Assembly (NCBI GenBank): GCA_021163745.1
Contig: JAGGTM010000044.1
Span: 1-33,743 of the forward strand
Reading direction: 5' to 3'
DNA from: a bacterium
Lineage (GTDB): Bacteria > Patescibacteriota > Minisyncoccia > Portnoybacterales > JAGGTM01
Length of the DNA stretch: 33,743 bases
Both the position numbers and the translations under genes were made by a program. Below, one piece after another: positions 1 through 31,306 of the stretch (the stretch's first letter is position 1; every line of letters begins with the position of its first letter). The notes under the pieces are model-generated. The model was not told the DNA's origin, ran no database searches, and saw only the letters and a program-made list of their open reading frames with translations.

Positions 1-152
1 AATATATTTTTAAAATTCTTTAGCAGTAATAGAAAAAAGCCTAAAACTAAAATCAAGTTCGGGAAAACACTATCAATAACAAACAAAGGAAACACACTAA
101 CCTGCAAAATATATGCTAAAAAAATAATCGGGAAAATAATGAAAGTAGTCAT
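1..152 (-). CDS. mreD: Rod shape-determining protein MreD (partial, runs off the window edge)
   Basis: Not in the ORF track. ATG at 152..150 is open to position 1. Translation MTTFIIFPIIFLAYILQVSVFPLFVIDSVFPNLILVLGFFLLLLKNF... is entirely hydrophobic. It lies directly downstream of mreB-mreC, as in canonical mreBCD. Confidence 0.55.
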   Translation of the reverse strand, partial: MTTFIIFPIIFLAYILQVSVFPLFVIDSVFPNLILVLGFFLLLLKNFKNI

Positions 153-220
153 GATTAGAGTTCTGTTTTCTTTTTTAGCTTATAAAGGAAGGTTTCTATC
201 TTTTAAAAGAATGTGATCCC

Positions 221-1070: not shown

Positions 1071-1080
1071 TATTCAAAAA

Positions 1081-1458
1081 GTCAAATCTCAAAACTCCCG
1101 CTCCAAAGGAGCGAGGCTCGCCCAGCCCTACTTTTGGAACAAAAGTAGGGCTGGGCGAGCAAAACTCAAATCCAAATCTTAAATCTCAAAACAAATTTAA
1201 GCTCAAAGCTCAAAGTGCAAAGTGCCCCGAAAGAAAGCCTGCGGCTTTCTACGGGGCAAGCAAAGCTAAAGCGTAAAGCTTAAAGCTAAAAAAGAAAAAT
1301 TTCGCTTTGCGCTTTGATTTGTAGTTTTGCGCTTTGCGCTTTGCGCTAAAATTAGTTTTGAATTTCAAACATTTGAATTTTGAATTTGCCTGCCCACCTA
1401 AGTTTTGTAAAACAAAACTTGGGCGAGTAAAGGATTTGTAATTTGTGCTTTGGGATTT
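1081..1458. repeat. Mosaic intergenic element copy E1 (heptad arrays plus hairpin modules)
   Basis: Fills the mreB-stop to mreC-start spacer. Contains 7-nt arrays (caaatct, ctcaaag/gcgcaaag and complementary ctttgcg, ttttgaa). Hairpins: 1096-1117; 1116-1160 (20-bp perfect stem, 5-nt loop); 1224-1257 (module C); 1391-1427 (K-type, aagttttgt/acaaaactt). Bases 1188-1287 are about 96% identical to 12900-12999. Confidence 0.85.
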
Positions 1459-1460
1459 AA

Positions 1461-2516
1461 TCATCCTTGTGGAGGTTCTTCGTGCTCTGTACTAACTAAA
1501 ACATCTCTCAACGCTTCTATATCCTCAAGTACAACTCCCGTTCCCCTTGCTACAGCAGTTAATGGATCTTCTGCAATTTTAACAGGCATTTCAGTTTGTT
1601 CTCTTATTAATTTATCTAAGTTTCTCAGTAAGCTTCCTCCACCTACCAAAATAATCCCTTTTTCCATAATATCTGATACCAACTCTGGAGGAGTTTCTTC
1701 AATTGCCGACTTAATAGTATTGACAAGTGTTTTAATAGAACGACTCATTGCCTTACGAACATCCTCGTCTGTTAGGATTATCTCTTTTGGCAAACCGCTT
1801 ACTAAATCTCTTCCTCTTACAACAATATCTAAATTATTTTCCAACGGATATGCAGATCCAATCTTTATTTTTACATCTTCGGCAGTCCTTTCTCCTAAAA
1901 GCAAGTTAAATTCTTCTCTGGCATATTGAACAATATCCTCATTCAATTTGTCTCCCGCTATTCTCAAACTTTTGTTTACTACAATTCCACCCAAAGAAAT
2001 TACAGCCACTTCTGTAGTACCTCCCCCTATATCAACAATCATATTCCCAGCGGGTTCCTGAACGGGGAGGCGCGCGCCAATTGCACCTGCCATTGGCTCT
2101 TCAATTAAATACACCTCCCTTCCCCCTGCATTTTTAACTGCATCCTCAACCGCTCTTTTTTCAACTTCAGTAACGCCGGAAGGAATTCCAATAACTACTC
2201 TGGGACGAGGTAAAATAGAAAGTGTCTCTCTATGAACTTTATCAATAAAATATTTAAGCATTTGTTCGGTAACTTCAAATTCCGAAACTACACCTCCCAC
2301 TAATGGTCTAGAGGCAACTATATGAGACGGGGTCTTGCCCACCATTTTTTTTGCCTGTTCTCCGATGGCCAAAACCTGCCCGGTTTTCTGATTAATTGCC
2401 ACAACCGATGGTTCATTTATTACAATCCCTCTTCCTCTTACATAAACCAAACTATTAGCAGTTCCCAAGTCAATACCTATATCTTTAGAAAATATGCCAA
2501 ATATTTTTGTAATCAT
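1461..2516 (-). CDS. mreB: Actin-like rod shape protein MreB
   Basis: 351 aa with the MreB signatures DLGTANSLVY, IDIGGGTTEVAVISLGG and GGGSLLRNLDKL. Confidence 0.95.
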   Translation of the reverse strand: MITKIFGIFSKDIGIDLGTANSLVYVRGRGIVINEPSVVAINQKTGQVLAIGEQAKKMVGKTPSHIVASRPLVGGVVSEFEVTEQMLKYFIDKVHRETLSILPRPRVVIGIPSGVTEVEKRAVEDAVKNAGGREVYLIEEPMAGAIGARLPVQEPAGNMIVDIGGGTTEVAVISLGGIVVNKSLRIAGDKLNEDIVQYAREEFNLLLGERTAEDVKIKIGSAYPLENNLDIVVRGRDLVSGLPKEIILTDEDVRKAMSRSIKTLVNTIKSAIEETPPELVSDIMEKGIILVGGGSLLRNLDKLIREQTEMPVKIAEDPLTAVARGTGVVLEDIEALRDVLVSTEHEEPPQG

Positions 2517-2603
2517 AAAACAAAATTAATTCTAAATTTTCAACTTTCAAGTGAATTAAGAAATCAAATTATTAAAAATTATTTGAAATATATGATTAAA
2601 GAC

Positions 2604-2625
2604 TAAAACGCGATTTTCAATCCCG
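2604..2625 (-). terminator. Weak candidate intrinsic terminator after proS
   Basis: On the minus strand, cgggatt-gaa-aatcgcg (6 of 7 bp) is followed by TTTTAG. It lies 25 nt downstream of the proS stop. Confidence 0.3.
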
Positions 2626-2650
2626 CACCGTAGCCATAATCTTTATTCAT

Positions 2651-3892
2651 TTAGAATCTAAATTTCGAGACGATACTATCGATCTTTACTAATTCCGCCT
2701 TATCTTCATCTCTCCTCTTAACCTCCACACATCCCTTAGATAAAGTCCTTTTGCTTACCACAACCCTATAAGGTATTCCTATCAAATCCGCCTCCGCAAA
2801 CTTTTCTCCGGGAGATTTATCTGTTCTGTCATCGTACAACACTTCTATGTTATTTTTCTTAAAATCTCTGTAAATTTTATCGCTTATTTTTTCTATTGCT
2901 TCTTTGTCTTCTAACTTTATTAAGTGCACAGCGTAAGGAGCAACCTCTTCTGGCCAAATAATTCCGTTTTCATCATTATTTGTTTCCACTATTGCACCCA
3001 TTAACCTCCCTAAGCCAATCCCATAACATCCCATTATAACCGTTTTATTCTTCCCATTTTCATCTTTGAAGGTAAGATTAAATGCCTTGGAGTATTTAAT
3101 TCCGAGTTTAAAAATATTTCCCACCTCTATTGCATTTTTCTTAACAAAATTATTATTTCCGCAAACAGGACATCGGTTAAATTCTGATTTTACCTCTTTA
3201 TTAATAGCAAAGTCGCATTCGGAGCAAATGTGAATAGTATCTTCTCCCGCCGAACAAATGGTCTGAAATTCGTGAGAATAATCAGAGAAAGTTCCTCCGG
3301 AAGCCAAAGTTAAATAGGTAAACGGGAGAACACCGCATCTCTCAAAAATTTTGAAATAAGCATTTTTTACCCTCTCATAATAATTATCTAAATCGCTCTT
3401 TGAATAATGAAAGGAATAAAGATCCTTCATTATAAATTCCTTTGTCCTCAAAATTCCAGATTTTGGCCTTAACTCATCGCGCATTTTTACCTGAATTTGA
3501 TAAACGTATTTTGGCAAATCTCTGTAGGAAGAAATAACCTTTTTAGCCAAAGGGGTAATTATTTCCTCATGAGTCCAAGACAAAGCATACTCTTTGTCAG
3601 ACTGGGACTTTAATTTAAATATTTCTTTAATGCCCCATCTATTTGTCTTCTCCCAAAACTCTTTTGGATGTAAAGCAATCAAGTAAACTTCTTGAGCATC
3701 TATATTATTCATTTCTTCTCTTATAATGTCTTCAATTTTTTTATGCACTCTGTAACCCAAAGGCAAAAAATTGTAAAGACCTGAAGAAACTTTATCTATA
3801 AAACCGGCGCGAATTAATAGTTTAGCGCTCACGCTCTTTTCGTCTTTGGGTGCTTCTTTTAGTGTTTTTGAAAAAAGTTTTGATTGCCTCAT
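2651..3892 (-). CDS. proS: Prolyl-tRNA synthetase, minimal bacterial type without the INS editing domain
   Basis: Class II motifs are present (LRTKEFIMKDLYSF, GCYGIGLGRLMGAIVE) plus a C-terminal anticodon-binding domain. I start at the ATG at 3892 (MRQSKLFSKTLKEAP matches the canonical N-terminus). The track start at 3898 is a TTG inside the repeat. Confidence 0.9.
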   Translation of the reverse strand: MRQSKLFSKTLKEAPKDEKSVSAKLLIRAGFIDKVSSGLYNFLPLGYRVHKKIEDIIREEMNNIDAQEVYLIALHPKEFWEKTNRWGIKEIFKLKSQSDKEYALSWTHEEIITPLAKKVISSYRDLPKYVYQIQVKMRDELRPKSGILRTKEFIMKDLYSFHYSKSDLDNYYERVKNAYFKIFERCGVLPFTYLTLASGGTFSDYSHEFQTICSAGEDTIHICSECDFAINKEVKSEFNRCPVCGNNNFVKKNAIEVGNIFKLGIKYSKAFNLTFKDENGKNKTVIMGCYGIGLGRLMGAIVETNNDENGIIWPEEVAPYAVHLIKLEDKEAIEKISDKIYRDFKKNNIEVLYDDRTDKSPGEKFAEADLIGIPYRVVVSKRTLSKGCVEVKRRDEDKAELVKIDSIVSKFRF

Positions 3893-3895
3893 AGA

Positions 3896-3996
3896 CAAAG
3901 CTCAAAACTCAAAGCGCAAAGCTCAAAACTACAACTCAAAGCGCAAAGCGAAATTTTCTTTTTCAGCTTTGAGTTTTACGCTGTAGCTTTGTGCTA
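3896..3996. repeat. Mosaic intergenic element copy E2 (short)
   Basis: CAAAG-type heptad array, then a turn (aaattttctttttc), then the complementary ctttg array. Bases 3921-3967 are the reverse complement of E1 1285-1332 (about 43 of 48 nt). Confidence 0.8.
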
Positions 3997-5152: not shown

Positions 5153-5710
5153 TTATACATTAAGAATTTCCTTTTCTTTTCTTTCTGCTAACTCCTCAAC
5201 TTTTTTATTGTATTCATCTATAACTTCTTGAAGTTTATCTTTCCCTTTATATTTTTCATCTTCGGAAATTTTCCCGTCTCGATAAAGAGATTGGATCTCT
5301 TTCCATGCTTCTTCCCTTTGCATTCTGATGCTTACTCTCACCTCCTCTACTTTCTGGCTCAAAATTTTAGTTAAATTTTTCCTCTGTTCCTCATCCAATG
5401 GGGGAATAATTAAACGAATTATCTCTCCATCTATTACCGGATTTAAACCAAGCTTGGACTCCCGAATGGCTTTTTCAATATCTTTAATTATGCTCTTATC
5501 CCATGGATCTATCATTATAACTCTTGGCTGCGGGCAATTTATAGCCGCCAGTTGCCTTAATGGCATTTTAGAACCATAACATTCTACTTGGATATTTTCT
5601 ACCAATGACGGAGAAACCCTACCTGCTTGTAAAGTATTCAATTCATTTTTCAAGTACTCTACGGCTTTATCTAAATTTGGCTTGATTTTATTAATAATTT
5701 CCTGATACAT
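5153..5710 (-). CDS. frr: Ribosome recycling factor
   Basis: 185 aa, full-length match in pattern to Frr (LRTGRA-like LQAGRVSPSLVENIQV, PPLDEEQRKNL). Confidence 0.95.
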   Translation of the reverse strand: MYQEIINKIKPNLDKAVEYLKNELNTLQAGRVSPSLVENIQVECYGSKMPLRQLAAINCPQPRVIMIDPWDKSIIKDIEKAIRESKLGLNPVIDGEIIRLIIPPLDEEQRKNLTKILSQKVEEVRVSIRMQREEAWKEIQSLYRDGKISEDEKYKGKDKLQEVIDEYNKKVEELAERKEKEILNV

Positions 5711-9040: not shown

Positions 9041-9868
9041 CTATTTTCTTATAAATTTGGGCGGAGTCAAATTTTCAATTACTTTATCAAATAAATCTAA
9101 ATATCTAATATTTTCTTCATTAATCAAAAATGGAAGTAATTGTTTTTTAAGAGATTTTAATTTTGGTTTAACCTGAGAATATCTTTTAAGAATTGCCTTT
9201 TTGTAGTCATCTAAATTTTTTATTTTAACTTTCTTTAAAGTGATGAAATTTGGAAAAATTCCTTTAGATAAAAGCCAAACCACATCATAGAAATCTCTTG
9301 CTCGGGCTGGTTTTCTGTAAATTATGGCTAAACTTTTTTGAGATAAAATTGTTTCTAAGGTATTAGAAACAACTGTTTCAATTACTCCAAATCGATTTAA
9401 AAGAAAAACTTTTTGAAAGACAAGATAATCAGGTTTTGTCATTTCAATTTTAATCATCAACTTTTCTTCCTTGAGTGGAGAAAGGTTAACTTCTTTTAGT
9501 AGTCCGCCGCCAAACTTTAAATACCCTCGCCAAATGTTCTTTCTAACTTTTTTAAACTTAAATTCCAACTCAAATCCTTCTTGAATTAATTTTTTAGTTG
9601 CATTTTTAAAAATTCTTTCTAAAACTATTGTTTTTAGCCCTAAATTGTCAAAATCCAAATCTTCAGAAAACCTATCTAAATTATGAAGCAGTCTCAAACT
9701 TGTGCCTCCAATAAAACTAATTTGAGAAGATTCTTTTTGTTGATAAAGATACTTCAAAAAATGGCATTGAAGATACTCTCGAAGAATAGCCCGCTTTTTA
9801 AAAGAAGGAATTCCCAAGGACTTTCCCATTTCTATTATATTTTCCCAGTCAAATTTTATTTTTTTCAT
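9041..9868 (-). CDS. abiEii: AbiEii/AbiGii-family nucleotidyltransferase toxin
   Basis: 275 aa with the N-terminal motif FIGGTSLRLLHNLDRFSEDLDFD typical of DUF1814/AbiEii nucleotidyltransferases. It overlaps the upstream antitoxin-like gene by 20 nt. Confidence 0.8.
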   Translation of the reverse strand: MKKIKFDWENIIEMGKSLGIPSFKKRAILREYLQCHFLKYLYQQKESSQISFIGGTSLRLLHNLDRFSEDLDFDNLGLKTIVLERIFKNATKKLIQEGFELEFKFKKVRKNIWRGYLKFGGGLLKEVNLSPLKEEKLMIKIEMTKPDYLVFQKVFLLNRFGVIETVVSNTLETILSQKSLAIIYRKPARARDFYDVVWLLSKGIFPNFITLKKVKIKNLDDYKKAILKRYSQVKPKLKSLKKQLLPFLINEENIRYLDLFDKVIENLTPPKFIRK

Positions 9869-11745: not shown

Positions 11746-12753
11746 TTATCGTTTTACCATTATTGCCCTTTTGTAAAATTCTAAATGTTCCAAAGCGATA
11801 CCTGTCCCTCTTGCTACACAAAGCATAGGGTCATCTGCAATAAATACAGGAACTCCAGTTACATTAGTAATCAGTTTATCTATATTCTTTAATAACGCCC
11901 CTCCACCACTCAAGGTCATTCCTTCGTTTATAATATCGGCACATAGTTCAGGAGGGGTTTCTCTTAAAACTGTTTTTATTGTATCAATTATCTCGTACAG
12001 TTGCTCTCTTATTGCACCGGCAATTTCATTTGTTTTAACTTTTACAACTTTAGGCAATCCATCTATTAAATCTCTCCCTTGAATCTCCAATTCTTCTTCC
12101 TCTTCTTCTGAAACAGCGCTTCCTATTTCTATTTTTATTTGCTCGGCTGTCTTTTCTCCAATTGCTAAATTATGTTTTTTTCTTATGTATTCGGAAATAG
12201 ATAAATCAATCTTGTCTCCTCCAACTCTGGTAGAGGCACAAGATACAATTCCACCCAGTGAAATTACCGCCACTTCCGTAGTTCCTCCCCCTATATCTAT
12301 AATCATGTGACCACTGGGTTCATTTATAGGAATCCCTGCACCAATAGCTGCCAAAATCGGCTCTTTGATTAGATAGGCATGCTTTGCGCCAGCTTTAACA
12401 CTTGCTTCTGTAACTGCCCTTCTCTCTGTAGAAGTGATTCCCGCGGGAACCGCTACCATAACTTCTGGTTTAAAAACCCTAAGTCTGCCTAATGCCTTTT
12501 TAATAAAATACCGAAGCATAGCCTCGGTCACACGGTAGTTTGCAATAACCCCGTCCTTCATCGGTCTATAAGCCACAATACTATCTGGTGTCTTCCCCAG
12601 CATCTCCTTTGCTTTCTTGCCAACAGCCAAAATACGATTGTCATCGACAGACACCGCTACTACGGTAGGTTCATTAATAATAACCCCCTTCTTTGGAATA
12701 TAAACCAATGTATTTGCGGTACCTAAATCAATGCCAATTTTTTTGATAAACAT
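11746..12753 (-). CDS. mreB: Second MreB-family actin-like protein
   Basis: Roughly 60% identical by eye to the MreB at 1461-2516 (IDLGTANTLVY, IDIGGGTTEVAVISLGG, GGGALLKNIDKL). Start set at the ATG at 12753 (MFIKKIGIDLGT). The track start at 12783 is a TTG inside repeat E3. Confidence 0.9.
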   Translation of the reverse strand: MFIKKIGIDLGTANTLVYIPKKGVIINEPTVVAVSVDDNRILAVGKKAKEMLGKTPDSIVAYRPMKDGVIANYRVTEAMLRYFIKKALGRLRVFKPEVMVAVPAGITSTERRAVTEASVKAGAKHAYLIKEPILAAIGAGIPINEPSGHMIIDIGGGTTEVAVISLGGIVSCASTRVGGDKIDLSISEYIRKKHNLAIGEKTAEQIKIEIGSAVSEEEEEELEIQGRDLIDGLPKVVKVKTNEIAGAIREQLYEIIDTIKTVLRETPPELCADIINEGMTLSGGGALLKNIDKLITNVTGVPVFIADDPMLCVARGTGIALEHLEFYKRAIMVKR

Positions 12754-12762
12754 GATAATATA

Positions 12763-13320
12763 AGCGCAAAGCTCAAAGCGCAAAGTGTAAAGCTAAAGCG
12801 TAAAACTTAAAGGTTATTAAAATATCTCAAATCTCACCCAACACCACTCTGGACTCCACAGTGGTGCTGGGCAAATCTTAAATCTACATCTCAAATCTTA
12901 AAACAAATTTAAGCTCAAAGCTCAAAGTGCAAAGTGCCCCGAAAGAAAGCCTGCGGCTTCCTACGGGACAGGCAAAGCTGAAGCGTAAAGCTTAAAGCTT
13001 AAAAGTAATTAAATCCTAAATTCAAAATCCTAAATTTTTACCCGCCCAAGTTTTGTTTCACAAAATTTGTACGGGCAGGCAAATCCAAATGACCAAAATT
13101 CAAAATTCAAAATGCCCACCCCCACCTTAATCCTCCCCTCCGACTTATGTCGGAGGGGAGGATATAGAATGGGGAGGGGTATTCGTTTTGAATTTGTAAT
13201 TTTGAATTTGGGATTTGTTTGGAATTTGTAATTTGGAATTTGGGATTTTAAAATTGTAGCTTTGCGCTATAGTTTTGCATGCTCTGTAGAAAACCGCAGG
13301 ATTTCCTTCGTGTCGCTTTG
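12763..13320. repeat. Mosaic intergenic element copy E3 (largest regular copy)
   Basis: Contains CAAAG heptad arrays and hairpin 12837-12871. Module C lies at 12936-12969, with a degenerate inverted copy at about 13276-13312. A K-type hairpin lies at about 13041-13078. The P module spans 13114-13183 with a 13-bp perfect core stem (13132-13161). Complementary gaatttg/ggatttg arrays run 13186-13250. Confidence 0.85.
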
Positions 13321-13322
13321 AT

Positions 13323-14585
13323 CTAATTATCTCTCACCCTTCTAATATCTGCTCCAATTTTAGAAAGCCGTTGTTCTATTTCTTCGTACCCTCTGTCAAT
13401 TTGATAGATATTCTCAATTTCTGAACGACCGGACGCTAAAAGACCTGCAATAATAAGAGCAATTCCTGCCCGAATATCGGGCGATATCAATTTTCTTCCG
13501 TATAGCTTAGTGGGCCCTCTTACTAAAACTCTATGAGGATCGCACATTAAAATATTCGCACCCATCTGATTTAAAATATCTGTATAAAATAACCTCCCTT
13601 CGAAAATAACCTCTTGTACCAAAGAATCGCCATGCGCCTGAGTCAAAAGAACAGTAAAGGGAGGTTGTAAATCTGTAGGAAATCCCGGGTATTCTTTTGT
13701 TTTTATATTAACTGCTTTTAATTTAAAAGGCGGAATAACTTCTAAATAATTACTTCCCGTCTTGAAATTTACTCCTGCTTTTTTTAAAATCTCCAGAAAT
13801 ACTTCTAAGTGCTCCGGAATAATACCCGAAATTTTTATTCTGCTTTTAGTTGCACCGGCCAAAATGGCAAAACTTCCTGCCTCTATTCTATCCGGAATAA
13901 TCCTACAATTAGCACCATTTAATTTGCTAACCCCATCTATGCAAATAGTATGAGTTCCTGCTCCCTTTATTTTCGCTCCGCATTTATTCAAAAAACTAAT
14001 CAAATTAACTACCTCCGGCTCACAAGCGCAGTTTATCAAAACACTCCTTCCTTTTGCAAATACTGATAAAATAATCATTGCTTCTGTTGCGGTTACAGAA
14101 ATTATAGGAAAAACAAACTTTGTTCCCTTTATTTTCTTTGCTTTAAGACAATATCCATTTTTAACGGGAATTATTTTTGCTCCGAATCTTTCAAATCCAC
14201 TTAAAAATATATCTCTCGGTCTCTGTCCAATCACGCATCCGCCAGGATGCGGGAAAAAACTTTCTCCCTCCCTTGCCAATAGTCCGGCAGAAATCAAAAT
14301 AGACGCCTTAAGCTTTTGGGAAATCTCTTGGTCTAAATGTGTAGTAGCAATGTCTTTTACCCAAACTCTATAAGTTTTCTCTCTGGTTCTCTCTATATTC
14401 GCTCCTATTTTTTTAAGTAACTCTATCTGCCTTAACACATCCTCAATCAATGGAATATTGGAAATAACACAGGGCTTTTCAGTTAAAACCGTTCCCGCCA
14501 GTATAGGAAGCGCAGCATTTTTTGCTCCGTTAACCCTTATTTCTCCTTCAAGTCTTCTTCCTCCCTTTATAATAAATCTCTCCAT
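13323..14585 (-). CDS. murA: UDP-N-acetylglucosamine 1-carboxyvinyltransferase
   Basis: 420 aa, full-length MurA pattern (GAKNAALPILA, active-site loop GGCVIGQRP, PGFPTDLQ). Confidence 0.95.
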   Translation of the reverse strand: MERFIIKGGRRLEGEIRVNGAKNAALPILAGTVLTEKPCVISNIPLIEDVLRQIELLKKIGANIERTREKTYRVWVKDIATTHLDQEISQKLKASILISAGLLAREGESFFPHPGGCVIGQRPRDIFLSGFERFGAKIIPVKNGYCLKAKKIKGTKFVFPIISVTATEAMIILSVFAKGRSVLINCACEPEVVNLISFLNKCGAKIKGAGTHTICIDGVSKLNGANCRIIPDRIEAGSFAILAGATKSRIKISGIIPEHLEVFLEILKKAGVNFKTGSNYLEVIPPFKLKAVNIKTKEYPGFPTDLQPPFTVLLTQAHGDSLVQEVIFEGRLFYTDILNQMGANILMCDPHRVLVRGPTKLYGRKLISPDIRAGIALIIAGLLASGRSEIENIYQIDRGYEEIEQRLSKIGADIRRVRDN

Positions 14586-15611: not shown

Positions 15612-15880
15612 CGAAAATTCAAAATGCAAAAATCAAAAATCAAAACAACATTCAAGCGCAAAACTTATTAAAATTCCAAATTCAAAATTACAAATTCAAA
15701 ATGAATACCCCCTCCCTTCCTATGTCCTTCCCCGACTCGTGTCGGAAGAGGATTAAGATGGGGGCGGGTATTTTGAATTTTGGATTTTGGCCATTTGGAT
15801 TTGCTTGCCCTCCCAGGTTTTGTCCCCGCCCGCCGCAAATTTCTTCGAAATTTGGGCGGGCAAGCAAAACTTGGGCGAAT
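15612..15880. repeat. Mosaic intergenic element copy E4 (divergent spacer)
   Basis: CAAAATT/CAAATTC arrays, a P module at 15704-15772 (aataccc...gggtatt), complementary ttttgaa/ggatttt arrays, and a nested K-type hairpin at 15808-15878 with an inner 14-bp stem (15828-15861). Confidence 0.85.
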
Positions 15881-22070: not shown

Positions 22071-22387
22071 AAGCGCAAAACTCAAAGCGCAAAACGCAAA
22101 GCGCAAAACGCAAAGCCACAGCGTAAAACTTAAAGCTAATTTATTTAAATTCCAAATCCCAAATTACAAACAAATTCAAAATTCAAATGTTCAAAATTTT
22201 GTTTTGAATTTTGAATTTAACTACTTTTGCGCTTTGCGCTGCAGTTTTGCCTGCCCCGTAGAAAGCCGCAGGCTTTCTTTCGGGGAGTTTTGCGTTTTAT
22301 GCTTTGCGCTAAAATTAGTTTTGAATTTTGGTCATTGTTTCGAATTTCGAATTTTTAATATTCAACTCGTTAACTCGTTAACTCGTT
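22071..22387. repeat. Mosaic intergenic element copy E5
   Basis: CAAAG/CAAAAC arrays and CAAATYC/CAAAATT arrays that turn directly at 22190-22215 with no P module. Module C is in inverted orientation at 22254-22285. An AACTCGTT x3 array lies at 22364-22387. Bases 22121-22198 match E6 30836-30920 apart from a one-heptad indel and about 5 substitutions. Confidence 0.85.
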
Positions 22388-22417
22388 AATAGAAATTTTC
22401 GCTTTACCCTCAAACTT

Positions 22418-30454: not shown

Positions 30455-30607
30455 TTATCTTCTTCTACCTCTTTTTCTGGTAGTCCTCTTCTTTGTAGTA
30501 GCCTTTCTTCTTCTGGTAGTCTTTCTTCTAGTTGTTCTTTTTGCCGCTTTTTTTCTTGTCGTTCTTTTTCTGGTGGCTCTTTTCCTGGATGTTCTCCTTT
30601 TTGCCAT
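30455..30607 (-). CDS. Candidate small Arg/Lys/Thr-rich basic protein (50 aa)
   Basis: Not in the ORF track. Manual translation gives MAKRRTSRKRATRKRTTRKKAAKRTTRRKTTRRRKATTKKRTTRKRGRRR then a stop. It has TTRK-like internal repeats, ATG start and TAA stop. It is the longest open frame in an otherwise ORF-free 950-nt region. There is no clear SD, but most genes here lack one. Confidence 0.4.
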   Translation of the reverse strand: MAKRRTSRKRATRKRTTRKKAAKRTTRRKTTRRRKATTKKRTTRKRGRRR

Positions 30608-30739
30608 ATAATTTAACGTCAATTTAACCGAAATTAATCAGTTAATTGATGCATATTTTTTAAGATACCCCCCTACGGCTATTAAGCCGTAGTATGAGAG
30701 TAAATATCGACCTTTCTTTTCTAGATTAGAAAAATATTT

Positions 30740-31306
30740 CAATTCAAAATTCAAAATCATTTTTAAGCGCAAAACTCAAAGCGCAAAGCGCCCCGAAGGA
30801 AAGCCTACGGCTTTCTACGGGGCAGGAAAACTATAGCGTAAAGCTTAAAGCTAATTTATTTAAATTACAAATTACAAATCCCAAATCCCAAACAAATTCA
30901 AAATTCAAATGTTCAAAATTCAAAATGAATACCCCTCCCCCCTCATTCTCCCCCCTCAAAGAGGGGGGAGATTAAGAGGGGGGTCTCCTCCGCCGTAATT
31001 TTGTTCCAGAAAGCTAAGGCTGTTCTAATTATTGAGAGTAAATTCTGAGTTTTCTCGCAACCCTATTTGTGTGACAAAATTACGGCGGGGGAGGATTAAA
31101 GTAAGACCACTTCAATTCCTCCCCCTCCCCTTGGGAGGGGGAGGATTAAGGAGGGGGAGGGTATTTTGAATTTTGCTTTGCCCTTGTAATTTGCGAAGCA
31201 AATTGTTTAGGGAGTTTTGACTTTTGAGATTTGAGATAAATTAGTTTTGAATTTTGGATTTTGGTCATTTGGATTTATTTGGGATTTGTGATTTGTAATT
31301 TGGAAT
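30740..31306. repeat. Mosaic intergenic element copy E6 (expanded)
   Basis: Module C at 30790-30823. CAAATYC/CAAAATT arrays at 30856-30927 are mirrored by arrays at 31243-31306 that run up to the hpf stop. The P region is expanded to 238 nt (30928-31165). It holds perfect hairpins at 30948-30970 (10 bp) and 31117-31145 (13 bp), and a 15-bp stem (30990-31004 with 31074-31088) enclosing a 69-nt loop. Confidence 0.85.

Follow-up and report, generated by a model that had tools for sequence, protein, structure and literature searches.

The hairpin repeated in the gene spacers of the DNA stretch analysed here (33,743 nt, hereafter the window) probably represents a family of non-autonomous, 36-nt palindromic mini-elements that are, or recently were, mobile in Patescibacteria. 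The Patescibacteria (CPR bacteria) have tiny, streamlined genomes, in which repeat families have rarely been described. If this reading of the repeat (named hairpin C) is correct, a 36-nt element that is nearly unchanged in dozens of species, resides in core enzymes and is polymorphic between strains would be a notable finding. It would supply 12-residue loop insertions to essential proteins and could serve as a natural marker of recent DNA exchange in uncultured bacteria. It would also be a convenient system in which to ask how the smallest mobile DNAs move, be it through HUH enzymes that recognise hairpins, by annealing or via RNA.

Copies of hairpin C in the window

The window is a gene-dense part of a bacterial chromosome (~33% GC) with nearly all genes on the minus strand. 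These include mreC, mreB, proS, a second mreB, murA, rpsM and the genes of SAM decarboxylase and HPF, and infA is known from the gene calls of strain contigs. The closest named homologues of ProS (60-66% identity) belong to Parcubacteria, Nealsonbacteria, Portnoybacteria and Pacebacteria, and therefore the organism is a Parcubacteria-like member of the Patescibacteria.

The initial annotation of this DNA reported a 34-nt hairpin present five times and in both orientations. Its repetition was borne out, with four intact copies and one decayed. The 32-nt core CCCCGAAAGAAAGCCTGCGGCTTTCTACGGGG, allowing up to 3 mismatches, was found at 1225-1256 (+, 0 mismatches), 12937-12968 (+, 2), 30791-30822 (+, 2) and 22254-22285 (-, 0), and in none of 100 dinucleotide-preserving shuffles. 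A covariance model built from family members and run over the window with filters off scored the four intact copies at 58-63 bits and the degenerate one at 29.7 bits, and yielded no further credible copy. As regards the length, the hairpin itself was recognised correctly, but the true unit has 36 nt, including a 4-nt tail (CAGG or CAAG). The copies are:

1225..1260, plus strand: copy 1, 36-nt unit (32-nt hairpin and CAAG tail) in the mreB-mreC spacer; 61.6 bits, DNA fold -12.9 kcal/mol, z -4.7
12937..12972, plus strand: copy 2, murA-mreB2 spacer; 58.5 bits, fold -7.2 kcal/mol
22250..22285, minus strand: copy 3, inverted along with its heptads, between a 576-aa ORF and infA; 62.2 bits
30791..30826, plus strand: copy 4, HPF / SAM-decarboxylase spacer; 62.6 bits, fold -11.8 kcal/mol
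13277..13310, minus strand: copy 5, decayed; 29.7 bits, E 9e-5, fold z about 0

All five copies are intergenic and lie between co-directional genes, three of them (copy 1 included) antisense and two sense. They are single units, 0.3-12 kb apart and in both orientations, and on these grounds a CRISPR repeat, which would be regularly spaced with unique spacers between, was rejected. No close dimer is present among them. Copy 2 carries T24 -> C and G32 -> A, both of which weaken pairing. Copy 4 was said to differ in its loop and in one stem position while keeping the pairing, and this is the case (loop TGC -> TAC; A8 -> G, turning an A-T pair into a G.T wobble). Copy 5, located 12 nt downstream of the murA stop codon, has lost its outer stem and carries T/T at positions 13/21.

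The embedding in heptad arrays was likewise seen correctly, since all five copies lie between CAAAnnn-type heptads, and copy 3 is bordered on both sides by identical CAAAACT heptads. The spacers concerned are unusually long (0.4-1 kb) and are made up of CAAAnnn arrays that face complementary nnnTTTG arrays. The repeated segments extend beyond the hairpin, as follows:

1159..1292, plus strand: composite heptad-hairpin-heptad repeat, copy 1; 92% identical to 12871-13004 and 82% complementary to 22226-22329
12871..13004, plus strand: composite repeat, copy 2 (repeat comparisons D1, I2)
22226..22330, minus strand: composite repeat, copy 3 (repeat comparisons I1, I2, I4)
30725..30858, plus strand: composite repeat, copy 4 (repeat comparisons D1, 64%, and I4, 80%)
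3896..3990, no strand assigned: heptad palindrome lacking the hairpin, i.e. an unoccupied array; 93% complementary to 1290-1343
1071..1460, minus strand: whole spacer forming one nested imperfect palindrome; RNA MFE -173 kcal/mol, z -13.8

The composite units measure ~100-134 nt; copies 1 and 2 are 92% identical to each other and share 80-82% identity with copies 3 and 4. The similarity of the window copies, from which selection on the fold had been deduced, is mostly a product of recent copying of a larger, 80-92% identical heptad-hairpin-heptad unit and not of independent selection on each of them. It could be supposed that nothing else happened, i.e. that heptad arrays slipped or were segmentally duplicated locally and so produced copies without counterparts in any other genome. 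Although copies 1 and 2 do share a 134-nt duplication (92% identity), this has virtually no probability, as the unit occurs without heptads at unrelated sites in ~40 other species, which already refutes it, and a hairpin of such composition cannot come from heptad slippage.

Secondary structure and sequence constraint

The unit consists of a CCCCG/CGGGG clamp, an internal loop, a stem of 7-8 bp with a 3-nt loop, and a YARR tail, and may be written CCCCG-AA(R)-[7-8-bp stem, 3-nt loop]-(C)TA-CGGGG-YARR. When folded as DNA, the intact window copies have an outer stem of 5 bp, followed by a 2x1 internal loop, an inner stem of 8 bp and a loop of 3 nt. Their energies lie between -11.8 and -13.2 kcal/mol, with z from -4.4 to -5.3, except in copy 2, whose fold is weakened; copy 5 does not fold. 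A stable hairpin forms in both orientations. The same asymmetric bulge had been ascribed to all copies. The intact ones do fold in this way, but copy 5 is unfolded and the bulge is a peculiarity of this lineage: pairing in the family consensus follows another register, with a 1x1 loop and a bulged A12, and the window variant is characterised by A8 and T24.

A search for compensatory substitutions was successful. Diverged copies in other genomes, found with the covariance model in flanking DNA, retain the hairpin via double changes. These are: three changed pairs in L009:5286, the flipped pairs C8-G25, C9-G24 and T13-A21 in L052:3155, and G13-C21 -> A-T in both L004 and L052:6533. Altogether, four pairs had changes on both sides, which was matched by none of 500 shuffles. 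The loop varies, whereas the clamp, the tail and the unpaired GAA...CTA bases stay constant and CTA(C)/GTAG is invariant. An invariant clamp together with CTA(C)/GTAG bases is what a protein-recognised shape would be expected to show. Because the search pattern fixed 22 of the 36 positions, the conservation and identity across species are partly a matter of ascertainment.

Changes that disrupt pairing had been predicted to be rarer than those that preserve it, and this did not hold: compensated stem changes are no more frequent than uncompensated ones, which occur in L038, L041, L050 and copies 2 and 5 of the window, and in L069 a copy fixed at a gene site has decayed without its pairing being kept. 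Selection on the fold or shape, rather than slippage, had been put forward as the cause of the conservation. Slippage can be dismissed, and the compensatory changes speak for a shape constraint acting on the family as a whole, but not for selection on each copy. Given the recent copying, the decay at fixed sites and the uncompensated changes, the constraint therefore looks like a propagation requirement of a selfish element and not like a host function.

A host-functional element selected at each locus, whether it acts in transcription termination or attenuation, stabilises mRNA as a 3' hairpin or is bound by a nucleoid or regulatory protein, is improbable, although the stability of the hairpin in both orientations, the intergenic position of all five window copies between co-directional neighbours and the existence of compensatory changes would agree with it. 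Roles of this kind have been proposed for REPs of other bacteria, according to passages of Di Nocera et al. 2013 (PMC3733652). On the other hand, three window copies are antisense and two sense, essential genes of other genomes harbour the unit within their ORFs, close strains differ in its presence at one and the same spacer, and fixed copies decay. An intrinsic terminator was rejected: the terminator scan flagged neither orientation, no T-run follows the stem 3' (the tails read CAAG/CAGG+CAAAG or CACTTTG), three of the five copies are antisense, and copies elsewhere occur within ORFs. With Rfam 15, the window gave no match at gathering thresholds and the hairpin none in 12700-13400 at E up to 1, and a known RNA family was rejected.

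Distribution of the family

An exact-pattern scan with CCCGAANGAAANCCNNNGGNTTNCTACGG (22 fixed bases) of one genome per species (2 x 596 Gb) revealed 46 loci in ~40 genomes, nearly all labelled as Patescibacteria lineages; by our estimate, ~0.07 matches would be due to chance. The family consensus is CCCCGAAGGAAAGCCTTCGGCTTCCTACGGGG followed by CAGG, CAAG, TAAA or TAAG. Outside the window lineage the copy number is low (1-3 exact-pattern loci per genome), and such a number is unusual for an actively transposing REP. About two thirds of the copies (~30 of 46) lie inside long ORFs, where four open frames are used.

A metagenome scan with the window-type pattern gave one locus only, and the pattern scans detected no copy in viral contigs, plasmids or phages. 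In a protein search, a profile of proteins carrying PEGKPSASYG had no match at E up to 10, and a literature search for REP, MITE or palindromic elements of CPR/Patescibacteria/Parcubacteria, or for the encoded peptides, found no published description. An assembly artefact was rejected because the unit is present in JGI, ENA, NCBI, Logan and single-cell assemblies, is placed in-frame and decays in orthologous sites.

One of the loci, L009 (1-5565), is a 5.5-kb contig of 50% GC from a MAG labelled 'Bacillota'. Hairpin copies delimit it at 137-173 (-), 5286-5322 (+) and 5340-5378 (-), of which the second and third form an inverted pair 17 nt apart. By translation reading, its ORFs encode a LexA-like repressor, two C5-cytosine methyltransferases and a Vsr-like endonuclease.

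In-frame insertions and comparison of filled and empty sites

Within a gene, the 36 nt amount to 12 extra codons, read as PEGKPSASYGAG, PRRKAFGFLRGR or PKESLRLPTGQA, or from the other strand as LPRRKPKAFLRG. Five of the six frames are open, and the single frame that contains a stop (TAG) was never seen within an ORF. The host genes encoding NAD-dependent DNA ligase (LigA) and a CopA-type ATPase were confirmed against solved structures, and the alignments with LigA (1v9p) and CopA (3j08) contain gaps of exactly 12 residues. Other host ORFs were recognised, by reading their translations, as LeuRS-, ValRS-, IleRS-, MiaA- and Mur-ligase-like. In ValRS, the unit occupies the same loop in two species, in two different frames, and the ATPase insertions are offset by ~3 residues between species; these are independent insertion events. 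Insertions into genes would survive in surface loops and termini because the unit has 12 codons and five of its six frames are open.

Filled and empty versions of the same site could be compared directly. In L004, a strain-level contig of the window's own lineage, 36 nt are present exactly where L002 and L006 have two adjacent heptads, and the hairpin carries a compensated G-C -> A-T pair. L069 and L070, whose DNA is 82% identical, differ by one clean 36-nt gap within a LigA codon. When the unit is removed from L010, GAA AGA TTC (E-R-F) is restored, i.e. the residues of empty LigA orthologues, and its removal from L028, at a different LigA site, restores CAA AAA ACT (Q-K-T), again the residues of empty orthologues. 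No target-site duplication was present in any of three filled/empty comparisons, and a MITE, defined by terminal inverted repeats and target-site duplication, was rejected on this basis.

Among the closest LigA clusters, 110 of 120 have no insert (PLER-FAEKS) and 10 have one of 12-13 residues, in some cases decayed. The filled alleles do not form one clade, and their nearest neighbours are empty (e.g. P0010 vs P0064, 84% identity). Copies in genes have decayed in L069, P0002 and P0003, as is expected for selfish DNA fixed in a gene. In two ORFs the element stands between repeated heptads: CAAGAAT occurs twice on each side in L042 (IleRS-like) and CAATTTC on both sides in L047 (ValRS-like). As 36 + 21 nt would preserve the frame, the element may sometimes travel with three heptads.

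The LigA gene of L069 was called in two pieces (1277-1816 and 2001-3368), ~185 nt apart, and the stretch of L070 homologous to this gap is N-masked.

Target site, polarity and proposed mechanism

The flanks of the element are biased towards A (positions -6 to -3) and towards C-A-A-A (+1 to +4). The preceding and the following heptad match at >=5 of 7 positions in 14 of 50 cases. The CCCC strand of the element is always the CAAA strand of the heptads, and in genes ~21 independent sense sites stand against one antisense site (in LigA). With local GC skew as a proxy, the element strand had a positive value in 32 of 50 cases, a weak signal with no clear replication-strand bias; such a bias is usual in IS200/IS605-type elements. 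The recurrently filled LigA site, TTAGAAAG^ATTYGC, is unlike the general A-rich target. Strain contigs around copies 3 and 4 are either identical to the window or break, or have N-gaps, in the spacer, and thus added no further polymorphic site.

We propose that the unit, when on single-stranded nucleic acid, folds into the clamped hairpin, and that a trans-acting enzyme recognises the invariant clamp and internal-loop bases (on the opposite strand, CCCC-GTAG directly before the variable stem). The most plausible candidate for this enzyme is a single-strand HUH/Y1 transposase of the RAYT or IS200/IS605 type, and it would cut precisely at the two feet of the hairpin and re-join the unit at a new site, the target not being duplicated. 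Insertion would prefer A-rich sites (...AAAAnn^CAAA..., AAAA^CAAA) in one orientation, and heptad arrays would supply these. Such a preference would cause copies to gather in CAAAnnn arrays, where they are harmless, with a constant polarity relative to the CAAA strand, and would place gene copies nearly always on the A-rich sense strand. In the window lineage, copies would also have spread with ~30 nt of heptads on each side, as 100-134-nt composites, by co-mobilisation or by recombination between arrays; within the window itself, the spread of composites could be plain recombination. Inferred parts of this model are that the substrate is single-stranded DNA, that the enzyme is of the type named and that the host gains no benefit.

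A phmmer search with RayT of E. coli gave no homologue among 1427 ORFs of the sampled loci, a weak negative given that these are partial genomes. In the neighbourhood of 11 intergenic copies (20 proteins), Pfam recognised housekeeping domains only and nothing transposase-like.

The family could also spread with no transposase at all. Short single-stranded fragments, consisting of the hairpin with heptads or A-rich microhomology, would anneal at replication forks or after natural DNA uptake and be patched in, and transformation would carry them across species; pili and competence genes are present in CPR bacteria. This is unlikely, although several observations agree with it: no transposase was found near any copy examined (sampled ORFs and the neighbours of the 11 intergenic copies), insertions are in register with heptad boundaries and their polarity is tied to the CAAA strand, and the window copies share ~30 nt heptad flanks, i.e. 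ready-made homology arms. Likewise in agreement are the repeated heptads around the element in L042 and L047 even within ORFs, the near-identity of units in ~40 species at a low copy number, and the type IV pilus-type genes (PilM, N_methyl) of the window lineage. However, the junctions of L031, L043, L044 and L010 have no heptad or obvious microhomology, and the same clean 36-nt boundary is found at unrelated sites, which argues for recognition of the ends rather than annealing.

The polarity in genes bears on a further alternative, in which the transcribed hairpin is reverse-transcribed and then integrated. Spread via an RNA intermediate was reportedly proposed for the small dispersed repeats (SDRs) of cyanobacteria, and the analogy with SDRs in heptamer arrays, the tolerance of G.U-compatible variants and the strong sense-strand bias in genes would fit it. 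Nevertheless, the A-rich target preference explains the sense bias equally well, the window copies face both ways relative to transcription, and no reverse transcriptase was found in the window (NCBIfam, 10 ORFs; Pfam, called genes) or beside the 11 intergenic copies. We consider this route very improbable.

Relationship to known small mobile elements

The proposed transposition of a hairpin unit by a trans-acting enzyme has a parallel in GTAG-tagged REPs, which are mobilised by RAYT tyrosine transposases (Bertels & Rainey 2011, PMC3116915; passages of Di Nocera et al. 2013, PMC3733652) and some families of which have in-frame intragenic copies (same passages of PMC3733652). Hairpin C resembles them in being a 20-40-nt imperfect palindrome, its 36-nt unit folding as DNA at about -11 to -13 kcal/mol (z -3 to -5), and in having, on the opposite strand, an invariant GTAG that directly precedes a stem of 6-8 bp and its 3-nt loop. 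It also shares with them subfamilies with complementary stem changes (L009:5286, L052:3155, L004, L052:6533), an intergenic position, which prevails in the window, and one inverted pair (L009). In contrast to REPs, the GTAG of hairpin C is not a free terminal tag, since an additional CCCCG/CGGGG clamp of 5 bp closes the internal loop that contains it. The unit further has a conserved YARR tail of 4 nt, and the partial genomes sampled yielded no RAYT gene, which in REP systems is flanked by the repeats (REPtron). Moreover, hairpin C is near-identical across many species of the superphylum and tightly associated with heptad arrays. REPs have a high copy number, are predominantly extragenic and often form inverted dimers; for hairpin C there are 5 copies in 34 kb, all intergenic, in the window, and 1-3 exact-pattern loci per genome elsewhere, ~two thirds of them intragenic.

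Three other groups of small elements are relevant. The SDRs reported by Elhai and co-workers in 2008 are said to be hairpin repeats of 21-27 nt from one group of cyanobacteria, the heterocyst-forming ones. They reportedly show compensatory changes, often lie in tandem heptameric repeats and were proposed to be among the smallest mobile elements. Compared with this description, hairpin C is likewise a very small dispersed hairpin with compensatory changes in heptamer arrays, whereas it differs in its length (36 nt), its occurrence in Patescibacteria and its frequent location inside genes.

The Rickettsia palindromic elements (RPEs) were reportedly described by Ogata and co-workers in 2000 as palindromic selfish DNA inserted in-frame in unrelated genes, including housekeeping ones, and tolerated as a surface peptide. 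RPE-1 is ~100-150 nt long and restricted to the genus Rickettsia. The hairpin C family is also found in-frame in unrelated ORFs, although no window copy is intragenic; unlike RPEs, its unit has 36 nt (12 aa) and occurs in many CPR lineages. RPE-1, -4 and -6 are cited in passages of the above paper (PMC3733652).

The minimal elements derived from IS200/IS605 are a parallel in their seamless insertion and excision with no target duplication and in the recognition, proposed for hairpin C, of imperfect hairpins rather than inverted terminal repeats. These elements (PATEs) have two different subterminal hairpins, a fixed 4-5-nt target and HUH-mediated single-strand transposition. Hairpin C differs from PATEs in its single hairpin, its loose A-rich target, a GC-skew proxy of 32/50 and the lack of TnpA/RayT in the sampled DNA.

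A bolder and more doubtful version of the mobile-element reading, which we hold only tentatively, takes hairpin C for an undescribed mobile hairpin of 36 nt spread throughout the superphylum and ranking among the smallest mobile units known. It would move horizontally not by a RAYT but by an unrecognised enzyme or by the cell's own uptake/replication machinery, entering and leaving seamlessly and occupying the same codon repeatedly in different lineages, and hairpins with a GGGCARGCAAA end and the heptad arrays would be its products or landing pads.

Other repeats and features of the spacers and neighbouring genes

In the fold of the whole spacer at 1071-1460, the two paired arms consist of CAAA heptads and of TTTG heptads, respectively, and hairpin C branches off at the side. 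Other long spacers of the window are likewise nested imperfect palindromes of complementary heptad arrays.

Further GC-clamped hairpins with different, AT-rich inner stems are present in the same heptad arrays at 13041-13079 (+), 1389-1427 (-) and 15828-15865 (+). They share the 3' motif GGGC-A[AG]GC-AAA with hairpin C and are weakly matched by the covariance model, which suggests a putative superfamily of GC-clamped hairpins having one end in common with hairpin C. A perfect 45-nt palindrome at 1116-1160, GCTCGCCCAGCCCTAC-TTTTGGAACAAAA-GTAGGGCTGGGCGAGC, contains CTAC/GTAG and adjoins a second small hairpin at ~1096-1116. Long C-run/G-run hairpins (CCCCTCC.../...GGAGGGG) were identified at 13114-13181, 15707-15770, 30930-30985 and 31118-31163; each is centred between CAAAATT and AATTTTG heptads, and Rfam returned only sub-threshold, generic miRNA-like matches for them. 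Next to copy 3, AACTCGTT is repeated three times (22364-22389), and the HPF / SAM-decarboxylase spacer contains 18-nt and 15-nt tandem repeats of the TCTTCTTCTGGTAGTCTT type at 30470-30588.

In practice, such repeat islands break the assemblies of CPR metagenome bins and draw spurious gene calls. Assemblies of the window lineage break or have gaps within the repeat spacers (contig ends in L056-L058, an N-gap in L062), and small, probably spurious ORFs were called over these spacers in L001 (11335-11499) and L003 (11241-11456).

Two differences between strains of the window lineage concern genes. Compared with L002, L001 carries an IS3-type (rve) insertion downstream of mreC (12472-13670). Between two glycosyltransferase genes, the window (9041-9868), L001 and L003 have an AbiEii gene, and in L002 and L004 a 398-aa ORF occupies its place.
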